Positions 2,269 to 31,674 of a stretch of DNA of 64,000 nucleotides are shown piece by piece (position 1 is the stretch's first letter; each line of letters starts with the position of its first letter). The DNA is from Ignavibacteriota bacterium (GTDB lineage Bacteria; Bacteroidota; Ignavibacteria; Palsa-1295): NCBI GenBank assembly GCA_963787835.1, contig CAWBEI010000005.1:292313-356312 (forward strand), read 5' to 3'. Position numbers and translations under genes: made by a program. Below the pieces are notes generated by a model. The model did no database searches and was not told where the DNA came from. It worked only from the letters and a program-made list of their open reading frames with translations.

Positions 2269-2335
2269 ATTCGCGCGGGTTGTGTCGTCCGCCCCCATGG
2301 GAAAGATGAACTATGAAAGATGAAATGGGGAATAT

Positions 2336-2434
2336 TGTAGCGCCGGACGCATCGCCCACGATGCTTTCCCCGCCGGTCCCCTAATCCCAGTGCGCACGCA
2401 CCCTGGGGGGACAGGCGAGGACGCCTGCGCTACA
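2336..2434. repeat. Inverted pair of GTAG-family REP elements
   Basis: TGTAGCGCCGGACGCATCGCCC and CAGGCGAGGACGCCTGCGCTACA (GTAG tetranucleotide plus palindrome). Confidence 0.6.
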
Positions 2435-2531
2435 GGGGCTATTTATTTTCGATTATTTTCAGGAATCGCTTGACTTCTGGAAATTCCCGCCGTATATTGG
2501 TATATGCTTTGATAGGCACTATTTCTTGGAG

Positions 2532-2764
2532 AAAGTATGAAGTATGAATTATGAAGTATGAATGGGGGCGGGGAGTTCATTGAAAAATTGATCTCGGCGG
2601 TAGGTTTCGATATGAACGAGTTCTCCATGAAAGCGTTTTGTGGATAACTTTTTCAACAAATGGCGAATCCAGCTCACATTCAAGGGTGGTCGGGAACTCA
2701 GCAAAAAAAAGAAATGGCACCAATTTCTGGGGGAAATTATGAAGTATGAATTATGAAGTATGAA
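2532..2764. repeat. Heptamer tandem repeats (TATGAAG/TATGAAT), two blocks
   Basis: AAGTATGAAGTATGAATTATGAAGTATGAA at ~2532-2562 and ~2736-2764; reverse-complement block at ~26511-26549. Confidence 0.7.
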
Positions 2765-2963
2765 AGGGAGAGGATTCGGAAAAATGTTGATTTTTTGGTT
2801 TTTGGCTAAATATTGTATTATTTTTGTACCGGAAACGCGATTTGGTGCCGGAAATGGCAGGTCACTTAAAAATCCTTTAAAAAGATTGTAACCTTTTCGC
2901 GTTTTGCGGGTCTTTGTTATAGGAGCGTCAATAACGGCGCTTCATAAAGGAATAAAAAACATA

Positions 2964-3299
2964 CTTTCAGAAGGACACTTGATACTGTTCTCTGTCTGGA
3001 AATCGCGATAATCGGTAACGAGCGATCGCTAACGAATCGCGGTTTTTTCAGAGAGGCTATAAAGGATGAGCGATCATCCGAGCATGAGCGATCATGCGAA
3101 TGGATTTGCCGCTTAAGGGCGGTACCCGGTCAGCGCTAATGCAGCTATGGTGCTGCCAGCGTTTATCAGGTAACAAATCGAGAAGTCATTTTCACGCAAC
3201 CGGACTGGTACAGCGGCGAAAAGGACGAAGCTCCAGGCGGCAAACCTCCATTTTTTAGCTTCTCGGCAGAGTCTTTTCATCAACTCTAACTTCTGAAAG
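2964..3299 (+). ncRNA. Putative structured ncRNA / 5' leader RNA of unknown class
   Basis: Closing stem CTTTCAGAAG (2964-2973) / CTTCTGAAAG (3290-3299); several internal stems; three GCGA tetraloop hairpins; no ORF in the track. Confidence 0.55.
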
Positions 3300-3302
3300 A
3301 CT

Positions 3303-3698
3303 ATGTCATCAACCTCGATTCCTTCTCCTGCTCACGTAGATCACACCCGCTTAGGTCATGTGGGCCATGAACTTCCGCCGTTCGTCGATCTTCAGTATAG
3401 TCCATATCCACAATCCGACGGTCAGCTCGGGACGATGCCCGGGAATAATCCTGTGCCGGATCTGATCCCGGACGAGGTCTATCAGGTGCTTCTGGCGCAC
3501 GATCTCATCAGCGAAAAAGGGATACGCGATCACATCATTCGCAAGGCATTCAAAGCCATGCGCGAACAGCAGGAATTGAAAAGCTGCGAAGCACTGGCGC
3601 GGCTGCAAGCGGTGTATCCATATTTGCAGATCGATACGATCAGGAAGATCATCTATCGCATCGGGCCGGGCGCTAACCGGAAAGCAATGATGTTTTAG
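3303..3698 (+). CDS. Small hypothetical protein with helical, HTH-like C-terminus
   Basis: ISEKGIRDHIIRKAFKAMRE...ALARLQAVYPYLQIDTIRKIIY; basic, amphipathic helices. Confidence 0.65.
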   Translation: MSSTSIPSPAHVDHTRLGHVGHELPPFVDLQYSPYPQSDGQLGTMPGNNPVPDLIPDEVYQVLLAHDLISEKGIRDHIIRKAFKAMREQQELKSCEALARLQAVYPYLQIDTIRKIIYRIGPGANRKAMMF

Positions 3699-3716
3699 AG
3701 GAAAAGTTCTTATAGA

Positions 3717-3876
3717 GTCATTGCGAGAAGAATCGAACGACCCGCATGATCGGTCATGCTGAGGGAGTTCGATTCGACGAAGCAATCTCAGACAGATTAC
3801 CGCGCTGTCTGTTCCGCCTGAGATTGTTTCGAAGGAATTGCTCCGCTGACGCTTCGCAATTCCTTCTCGCAATGAC
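3717..3876. repeat. GTCATTGCGAG...CTCGCAATGAC palindromic element, copy 1
   Basis: Terminal inverted repeats plus internal GACGAAGCAATCTC/GAGATTG stems; related copies at 13092, 16337, 35153, 39348. Confidence 0.85.
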
Positions 3877-3910
3877 ATGAAAATAAAACTGTTAGGAAAA
3901 ACACGCATAA

Positions 3911-6562
<2,652 letters not shown>

Positions 6563-15242: not shown

Positions 15243-15387
15243 GTCTAATGCTCGTTGCTAATTAAATTCTGGGGTGAACCGAATTCTCAGCACACCATAA
15301 TGAATAATTTGTTACGATCCCATTCCGAAGAGGTTACAGGGTAATTATTTGTGACCTAACGGCAGTCGTTGTTCCTCCAAATCAATG

Positions 15388-16808: not shown

Positions 16809-16889
16809 AAGAATTGAATGATTTAGAAAATACAAATATACGAGAGAAAAGAAGGACTATTGAGAAAAATTTCGTATATTTGTACATAA

Positions 16890-17095
16890 ATATGTGGTGC
16901 CTCGCACAAATGAGCGATCATGCGGCGAGGTGAAAAGGGAATCTCGTGACGTTCGAATGAGCGATCATCCGAATTAATTCGAGAGCTGCCCCGCAACTGT
17001 AACTCCATCGGCGTTCAATCGCCGTCCACGAAGTCCACTGGGTCCACGGACCTGGGAAGGCATTTTAGGAGAAGCCAGGAGACCTGCCACGTCAT
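16890..17095 (+). promoter_or_regulatory. Cobalamin (AdoCbl) riboswitch
   Basis: GGTGC...AAAAGGGAA...GCTGCCCCGCAACTGTAA...CCACTG...GGGAAGG...AGCCAGGAGACCTGCC (B12 box) upstream of a TonB-dependent receptor. Confidence 0.95.
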
Positions 17096-17232
17096 TCTAA
17101 TTCACTTGGCCTTCGAGGGAGAGGCAGGAGTTACAGACAATCGGAATTGTAGCGTAAACGTTAGTTTGCGCTCGCTCGCTCGATTTTTCGTGCTCCTATG
17201 CTCGCCTCCCGAAGGCTGTATGGGAGCTTTTT

Positions 17233-31585: not shown

Positions 31586-31674
31586 GCCAAACCAAACGGA
31601 GGGGGTTCGTAAGGGGTTCGCAGGGTATTGAAAAGTGACCTAAGGGGTGCGGGCCCTTCACGATTGGGAAACGC

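Follow-up and report, generated by a model that had tools for sequence, protein, structure and literature searches.

A structured 5' leader predicted to close over the start codon of a helical protein gene in an uncultured family of Kapabacteria-like bacteria

Results

The gene and its leader

The window, a 64,000-nucleotide stretch of DNA, carries at 3303-3698 a gene for a conserved protein of 131 amino acids. Directly upstream, at about 2920–3307, lies a structured RNA of ~385 nt. Since it occupies the span from a promoter motif to the start codon, it is the 5' leader of this gene and not a stand-alone RNA. The parts of the leader and its gene described below are on the + strand. The leader is present in a single copy in its genome, and no full-length DNA match was found in 300 other genomes of the phylum. 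We compared 36 loci of the family in which the promoter motif and the heptamer UUGAUAC lie within the contig. Loci whose contigs end inside the leader (L013, L132, L133 and L139), a duplicate (L134) and a locus with a variant promoter (L025) were left out; the last one has the heptamer and the same closing stem. Genus labels of six metagenome loci were assigned by likeness. The leader measures 344-607 nt in the source genus and 151-310 nt in the other genera of the family.

The protein consists of a variable N-terminal part of ~48 amino acids, predicted with low confidence, and a helical domain of ~84 amino acids carrying the motif YPYLQxDTIRKIxY. Homologues were found in 48 of the 61 genomes searched (31/34 in the family); close ones are named hypothetical proteins of Ca. 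Kapabacteria, and distant ones occur in Ignavibacteria and Rhodothermia. In complete loci with a secure start call the protein is soluble and 113-165 amino acids long. AlphaFold, run with 96 sequences, predicted a confident five-helix domain (pLDDT 91). Sequence searches of Pfam, PHROG and the PDB gave no match, the Atlas clusters were unnamed, and the best Foldseek hit had an E value of 2.4 or worse. The best fold matches were MuA Ibeta (Z 6.1, rmsd 5.8, 65 residues aligned) and TnpE (Z 6.2, rmsd 4.9, 62 aligned), both below the level that the tool regards as meaningful, and the top weak matches are homeodomain-like HTH domains. Matches of single family members, to Mor (E 0.034) and to a late-promoter activator (E 0.006), are treated as a lead only; the fold search recognised no RNA-binding fold. 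The preliminary description had called the protein basic and HTH-like. It is only mildly basic (pI 9.2 for the core, 7.0 for the whole protein) and its HTH-like character draws on the weak fold matches (Z at most 6.2). We infer that it is a putative DNA- or RNA-binding regulator.

Within the flank examined, purA follows the gene in 10 of the 36 loci. Between the gene and purA the window contains three strong REP-like hairpins (3699-3885, z -3.4), one of them a loop variant of the mini-hairpin described below. On the other side, duplicated tandem heptamer runs TATGAAG/TATGAAT lie at 2536-2563 and 2739-2765, and such runs also adjoin the 6S locus. A Sigma70-like TTGACT-N17-TATATT site (2470-2498) precedes these repeats. 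Still further upstream are AT-rich accessory genes (119-2113), which code for a fragment of an Mrr-like/NACHT-associated nuclease domain and two proteins without a Pfam match.

Promoter region and transcription

The region ahead of the leader is layered. A candidate upstream promoter, TATTTTTG at 2819-2826, matches TAnnTTTG, which we take to be the Bacteroidota housekeeping -7 consensus. TAnnTTTG lies upstream of the second, ECF-type motif in 16 of 17 genus loci. Between the two is an operator-like site (2859-2878) with an intact left half, AGGTCAC, and a right half that is degenerate in the window. The family consensus of this palindrome is AGG(T/G)CA-N8-TG(A/C)CCT, placed 8-9 nt upstream of the -35 element. 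The pattern was found in 25/36 family loci, and in 29/34 other genomes of the family vs 4/26 other genomes of the class. The palindrome is thus limited to the family while the protein is class-wide, and the encoded protein is at most a possible binder. Copies lie in the window at 2859-2878, 15338-15357 and 31622-31641, and in the source genome (G000) at C2:1415911, C4:120248, C4:398765 and C6:138467. The 11 best genome matches are all intergenic and precede an ECF sigma/OmpA-barrel cluster as well as apparent polysaccharide and exported-protein genes.

The ECF-type promoter-like motif TGTAAC-N16-GGTCTT lies at 2887-2914. The motif is conserved in all 36 loci, and its form in the family is TGT(A/T)AC-N16-GGT(C/A)CT. 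The source genome has a motif sharing 25 of 28 bases with it ahead of an ECF sigma gene; many genes of apparently exported or envelope proteins (N-termini judged by eye) are preceded by weaker matches. Therefore, this motif is probably an ECF promoter with a start near 2920. We found no Bacteroidota ECF paper describing the TGTAAC motif.

Just behind the motif is the 5'-terminal hairpin of the leader (2922-2943, z -5.77, reached by 0/200 shuffles), and relatives have hairpins of differing sequence at the same place. The element therefore starts further 5' than the preliminary description had it, with this separate hairpin (z -5.8) at its front. A further sequence pair, TTGCTAC upstream of the ECF motif and the complementary GTAGCA just 5' of the closing stem, was complete in 13 loci (L006, L008-L012, L014, L021, L028, L033, L131, L135 and L136), absent in 22 and represented by a single member in 1; both are lost in the subgroup of the window. 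The pair suggests that a longer transcript has one more, outer stem.

Part of the stretch is contained in six RNA runs, each from a different coded study; four of these studies are 2018 soil or wetland sets, possibly from one campaign. Contigs of relatives (80% identity) cover the leader in 6/6 runs, and two bridge the leader and the ORF (X5, 2807-3406; X9, 3267-3693). This is consistent with the expected transcription, with the reservation that such contigs give no strand, ends or level and that RNA libraries may contain DNA. Over 2780-2943 two DNA runs have contigs and four RNA runs have none, while the contigs of X7 and X5 begin at 2892 and 2807; from this coverage a start near 2920-2940 is no more than weakly hinted at. 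Contig depth was apparently higher over the leader than over the ORF, a measure that cannot rank the two parts. Runs X10 and X11 contained several separate leader contigs.

Fold of the leader

All pairings listed in the preliminary description were found in place. CTTTCAGAAG (2964-2973) is complementary to CTTCTGAAAG (3290-3299), followed by the ATG at 3303. The GCGA hairpins CGA-GCGA-TCG (3019-3028), GGATGA-GCGA-TCATCC (3064-3079) and GCATGA-GCGA-TCATGC (3082-3097) are present, as are the complementary strands 3101-3114/3235-3250 and CGAGAAG/CTTCTCG (3179-3185/3259-3265). The + strand of 2955-3310 has a minimum free energy (MFE) of -135.9 kcal/mol (z -7.86) and none of 100 shuffles was as stable, so the claim of a real fold held up against shuffled controls. 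The - strand of the same segment also folds well (z -4.79).

The outermost helix, P1, is the closing stem. Its 5' strand (2959-2973) pairs with 3290-3299 and, beyond the end given in the preliminary description, with 3302-3306. Because of this extension (2959-2963/3302-3306) the stem does not end short of the ATG and covers the AUG itself. The invariant heptamer UUGAUAC (2979-2985) forms the 5' strand of the weak helix P2 (with 3279-3283) or, alternatively, the loop of a predicted metastable hairpin at 2965-3001 which ties up the P1 5' strand. The 5' strand of P3 (2990-2996) pairs with 3265-3271, with 88% of cells paired in 16 genus sequences. The long stem that had been drawn at 2989-3054 stands only as a local side hairpin, P4 (2998-3047); its supposed base belongs to P3 in the MFE structure. 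The base of P4 covaries, with changes on both sides in 5 of 6 pairs among the 16 genus sequences, and its tip, here CGA-GCGA-TCG, is variable. After two copies of an AUGA-GCGA-UCAU mini-hairpin (3064-3097), a genus-wide repeat, P6 (3098-3120/3230-3253; overall 3098-3253) encloses the variable hairpins P7 (3123-3172) and P8 (3185-3226). In P6 90% of cells are paired and 3/14 pairs are changed on both sides; for the P7 tip this holds for 3/5 pairs. The 3' arm (3279-3307) comprises the 3' strands of P2 and P1 with the translation start region and the AUG. When the 5' arm is absent, it can fold back locally on 3265-3278, and this hairpin covers the AUG as well. In 35 of 36 loci the base at -3 relative to the AUG is a purine.

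The pairing CGAGAAG/CTTCTCG had been offered as an alternative or a pseudoknot. We rejected it since the complement exists without being conserved (62% of cells paired, covariation reached by 207/500 shuffles).

Conservation and covariation

To the genus alignment, made with MAFFT, 16 leaders contributed, the longest one (L008) being left out. The scaffold P1-P2-P3-P4-P6-P7 was paired in 88.5% of 814 cells with 34 double changes, and 0/500 shuffles reached its covariation score. Slid controls were 35-43% paired, a comparison that favours the scaffold because it was taken from the MFE structure of the window. RNAalifold on the same alignment returned local alternatives and not the long-range scaffold. 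Double changes were confined to P4, P6 and P7; in P1, 85% paired, none of 15 pairs had them, and covariation of P1 was seen only between genera. Thus, the inner helices covary within the genus and P1 across genera. Both strands of P6 are strongly conserved in primary sequence within the genus.

Folding z-scores, with 25 shuffles for each leader, ranged from -5.2 to -12.0 in the 14 genus leaders with values listed and from -2.2 to -8.8 in 19 non-genus leaders; in 7 of these 19 the reverse strand folds as well or better. Leaders of different genera could not be aligned. What they share is a pairing, within each locus, between the 26 nt that precede the heptamer and the 27-nt segment that ends at the AUG. 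The interior, about 100 to 500 nt, differs between genera, which leaves the heptamer and the closing stem as the only common parts. The closing stem keeps its position while leader length varies from 151 to 607 nt. In 23/36 loci the cognate duplex between 5' arm and start region beats every partner from another genus, and for eight genus representatives the cognate sum was -104 vs -57 kcal/mol, a result equalled by only 2 of 40,320 permutations.

Deletion of the 5' arm lowered the computed cost of opening the start region (-15 to +12 around the AUG) in 36/36 loci. The mean cost fell from 12.8 to 6.1 in the genus and from 12.3 to 5.4 in the others; the average drop over loci was about 6.5 kcal/mol, and in the window the cost fell from 13.6 to 6.0. 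The cost in the window is not extreme, for among 110 genes, crudely called and taken with the same length of upstream sequence (median 8.2), 16 had a cost of 13.6 or higher. The best upstream duplex anywhere had a median of -15.9 in the family (n=35) vs -12.7 in distant homologues (n=112), a modest difference. The argument rests on the fixed position and the covariation of the stem, not on absolute energy.

The invariant heptamer

UUGAUAC shows no change in 36/36 loci, nor in any further locus of the family with a contig long enough to include it, and its partner strand varies and is often incomplete. Since one strand is invariant and the other variable, the heptamer suggests a recognition site for a factor dedicated to this gene. 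Of 128 loci of distant homologues, 11 have it as well, 48-63 nt ahead of the start, and these apparently fall into two or three clades. Among 123 distant upstream regions we counted 25 TTGATAC matches, about half of which were discounted since an upstream LuxR-like gene has them within its coding sequence. No enrichment of the heptamer was found elsewhere in the intergenic DNA of the genome (15 sites with G/T following). A different sequence, ACCGTTC, lies upstream of the same gene in 24/123 distant loci, those of Rhodothermia (e.g. L074, L103, L114, L116, L120 and L130).

The alternative hairpin at 2965-3001 is the RNAalifold consensus in the genus, with 93% of cells paired and a covariation reached by 36/500 shuffles. 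Its z-score is -1.8 and it is not general in other genera. Prefix folding predicts that the outer stem of this hairpin is lost to P4, and that its inner stem remains over most of the transcript length.

Mini-hairpins and expanded RNAs of the genus

The three GCGA tetraloops had been presented as defining features of the RNA. Two of them belong to the 12-nt genus-wide repeat, and the third loop is not kept in relatives. The apparent compensatory G-C/C-G swap between the tandem hairpins is likewise variation of a repeat and not covariation of a conserved helix. The sequence ATGAGCGATCAT was found 31 times, and 41 times with loop variants, in the 3.57-Mb genome; 27 of the 41 copies are outside crude ORF calls in a genome that is about 90% coding. 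As a dispersed multicopy palindrome, mostly outside genes, it resembles REP/REPIN elements. Genomes of the genus have 5-77 copies and those of other genera 0-8, with 0-2 for the reversed control, and orthologous leaders carry 0-3 copies at different places. In sense orientation, tmRNA and the cobalamin riboswitch at 16878-17105 carry two copies each, and RNase P RNA carries one full copy together with a shorter variant; further copies lie in both rRNA spacers and just 5' of 6S. This 12-nt GNRA mini-hairpin, AUGA-GYRA-UCAU, also occurs in leaders and in some protein N-termini, where it reads M-S-D-H; examples are 3064-3097 and 16910-16968 in the window and, in the source genome, C3:311840-312339, C3:317721-318158, C5:291595-291675 and C6 at about 166390 and 169570. 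Palindromic elements in tmRNA and RNase P RNA have reportedly been described in Rickettsia.

The housekeeping RNAs of the source genus are enlarged. Its tmRNA has 500 nt and its RNase P RNA 438 nt, and the 6S core measures 275-356 nt in three genus copies vs 177-234 nt in six others of the family and 142-190 nt in seven others of the class. Since the genus expands all its structured RNAs, some of the structure of the leader may be neutral. The mini-hairpins mark the leader as an insertion-tolerant structured RNA; they do not define it. Rather than a ligand pocket, the branched interior of the leader is likely an expansion that is specific to the lineage and tolerated, like those of the 6S, tmRNA and RNase P RNA of the genus. 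As a separate observation, RNase Y (TIGR03319) scored over the cut-off in 0/35 genomes of the family vs 25/26 other genomes of the class.

Comparison with known RNA classes

The preliminary description had seen no hallmarks of tmRNA, RNase P RNA, T-box or common riboswitches, and we agree. Rfam 15 matched only the cobalamin riboswitch (16878-17105) in the window, and a looser threshold applied to 2300-4020 gave six matches at E 1.5-8.8, all far below the cut-off; the leader thus has no Rfam family at two thresholds. Both tmRNA and RNase P RNA were found on contig C3, so neither was kept as a candidate. A faint likeness to the T-box sequence AGGGCGGTACC at 3116-3126 is not kept in relatives, and a T-box, for which Rfam gave no hit either, was dismissed with it. 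A metabolite riboswitch is unlikely because the interior has no sequence or fold core common to the genera.

We also considered whether the leader replaces 6S RNA, since RF00013 misses 35/35 family genomes and the zapA-6S-rny order is broken in the source genome, where neither 6S nor rny follows zapA. A sequence model built from 13 class 6S RNAs found 6S elsewhere in 18/20 non-genus family genomes, and this candidate was rejected. The 6S RNA of the source genome lies at C5 about 119770-120130 (- strand), about 175 kb from the leader; it was located by blastn after a five-sequence nhmmer profile had missed it. RF00013 finds 6S in 5/61 genomes and the 13-sequence model in 48/61 at E 0.05 or better, with a few partial or doubtful hits. 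The class-wide 6S loci (L229-L253) are strongly expanded in the source genus, and in the family 6S RNA has left the zapA-rny position. With RF00013 and the model built here, the class 6S appears as a long irregular rod whose tip is branched and expanded in the genus, a likeness to our leader; the leader, however, has none of the class 6S hallmarks.

Discussion

A probable translational lock and its alternatives

The two ends of the leader are complementary and predicted to bury the start codon, which makes a default-off lock likely. We therefore think that the leader probably lowers translation by default and works like the leader of the MS2 maturation gene. The 5' arm would pair with the start region and cover the AUG, so that ribosomes could enter only while this arm is engaged elsewhere. 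In the source genus the hairpin at 2965-3001 may hold the 5' arm during transcription, as in the MS2 maturation leader, and the heptamer would be the likely handle for a dedicated factor. Our best single guess for this factor, a tentative one, is the encoded protein itself, which would close the lock through the heptamer in a negative feedback. A kinetic window in the source genus, within the same lock, seems to us unlikely. Of the two proposals in the preliminary description, a non-coding RNA or a translational switch, an uncatalogued structured RNA closing over the start is upheld; the switch fits better than a stand-alone RNA since the closing stem always includes the start region of the same gene.

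That the 5' arm might be removed, and not displaced, is a reading we regard as rather improbable. RNase III or RNase E would cut the P1-P3 rod at a site marked by the heptamer, and loss of the 5' arm would enable translation, much as cutting off the 5' arm turns translation on in type I toxin mRNAs. Genes for RNase III and RNase E/G are present, the long irregular duplex is family-wide and loss of the arm halves the opening cost. The lack of RNase Y over the cut-off in all 35 family genomes, compared with its presence in 25 of 26 others, suggests that decay pathways are changed there. The contigs, however, give no ends and show no cut site, the heptamer is also present in distant homologues whose leaders are short and fold weakly, and invariance of one strand is not typical of plain dsRNA substrates. 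The release of a stable RNA from the leader, which would act as a protein sponge or RNA polymerase decoy with the burial of the AUG being secondary, appears very unlikely. The strong conservation of both P6 strands in the genus, the separate leader contigs in X10 and X11 and the mini-hairpins shared with the stable RNAs of the genome would agree with it, but the interior cannot be aligned between genera and shrinks to about 100 nt, the sole family-wide helix involves the start region, no terminator was found before the ORF, and the 6S, tmRNA and RNase P RNA of the genome lie elsewhere.

We consider it just as unlikely that the lock is opened in trans, by an sRNA pairing at UUGAUAC, in the manner of rpoS, or by a ribosome on a short uORF which starts from the UUG of the heptamer (M-I-L/R-F/Y...). 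The heptamer directly adjoins the 3' side of the inhibitory strand, so that an RNA or ribosome bound there would stand in the way of P1, and 13/17 genus loci read a six-codon ORF from the UUG. However, the best intergenic complement in the genome (-25 kcal/mol) does not stand out from the background. An A is found at -3 of 10/36 UUGs and a G at none, while 35/36 AUGs have a purine there; codon 3 of the uORF flips between Leu and Arg with a fixed first base, and the ORF length is not conserved. It is least probable, to a degree that we nearly disregard it, that the structure is neutral or merely stabilising and stems from palindromic repeats. The genome is rich in hairpin repeats, and the start regions of many other genes are computed to be just as closed. 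Against this reading stand the invariant heptamer and the covariation, both that seen within the genus and that of P1, at its fixed place, between genera. A default-off translational lock remains our preferred reading.

Relation to known systems

The leader of E. coli rpoS, a regulator gene, is long and uses an upstream strand to occlude the ribosome binding region. The leader in the window shares these traits; it differs in that the genome scan identified no partner sRNA and that the closure spans the whole leader. The mRNAs of hok and tisB are examples of type I toxin leaders. Our leader resembles this group, to which aapA3/IsoA3 with its metastable hairpins also belongs (PMC6733600), in the sequestration of the initiation region by folding and in a possible metastable hairpin during transcription. 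Its product is different, a 131-amino-acid soluble helical protein and not a short membrane peptide. We rejected a type I toxin-antitoxin locus, as no short hydrophobic toxin is present and the family protein is soluble, with 113-165 amino acids. On the opposite strand no conserved promoter motif was found (ECF-type motif in 0/36 loci, TAnnTTTG in 4/36).

The closest layout is that of the MS2 maturation leader. Its description (PMC4615214) gives a 5' hairpin, an upstream complementary sequence, a branched interior and a long-distance helix over the initiation region, and a metastable alternative hairpin made of the complementary sequence and the start of the next arm. By computation the window leader has the same layout, with an upstream complementary sequence that pairs at long distance over the initiation region. 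Unlike the MS2 leader, it is chromosomal, 150-600 nt long instead of about 130, contains an invariant heptamer and pairs over a mostly SD-less start together with the AUG; the alternative hairpin is supported in one genus only, and we claim no sequence homology. Membership among levivirus 5' UTRs was rejected because the locus is single-copy and chromosomal, not an RNA phage genome.

A parallel for feedback by the encoded protein is offered by the HTH proteins Aca1 and Aca2, which, according to PMC13551039, bind structured RNA in their own 5' UTR and repress. Like the Aca loci as described there, the window has a small, tentatively HTH-like protein behind a conserved structured leader and an operator-like palindrome at the promoter. 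It differs from them in lacking an anti-CRISPR or phage context, in the far larger RNA with long-range closure, and in a protein without PHROG or Pfam family whose RNA binding is only putative. In Bacteroidetes, the start of translation is adjusted through the structure of the mRNA and an A at -3, as stated in PMC6847099.

A bolder picture that joins several of these observations is improbable in our estimate, though worth stating. The leader could be a chromosomal 'translation timer', corresponding in cells to the delayed-folding leader of MS2, by which an unrecognised HTH-family regulator of an ECF-sigma envelope regulon would get one short burst of translation per transcript before the ends lock. 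To set the length of this burst, the regulator would read UUGAUAC as an ancient RNA element, retained from Ignavibacteria to Kapabacteria. Starting as an element of ~60 nt, the lock would have reached 600 nt in a family which had lost RNase Y and in which all structured RNAs accrete GNRA mini-hairpins.

Significance

The leader has not been described in the literature that we found, although supplements of motif-discovery studies could contain it as an uncurated motif. As an RNA family it is new, though of a kind already known, and its full form is restricted to one uncultured family. It thereby adds to a lineage without a cultured member an uncatalogued, probably cis-regulatory RNA family with a minimal core of heptamer and closing stem. 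The genus-specific GNRA mini-hairpins in tmRNA, RNase P RNA, the riboswitch and the rRNA spacers bear on the expansion of structured RNAs, and the RNAs decorated with them occur in a family apparently without RNase Y. The finding also illustrates how occlusion of the start region may work where Shine-Dalgarno pairing is weak. Finally, it suggests that an unnamed family of helical proteins, present in Ignavibacteria, Rhodothermia and Kapabacteria, is a putative regulator under layered control, by candidate housekeeping and ECF promoters, an operator-like site and a probable translational lock.
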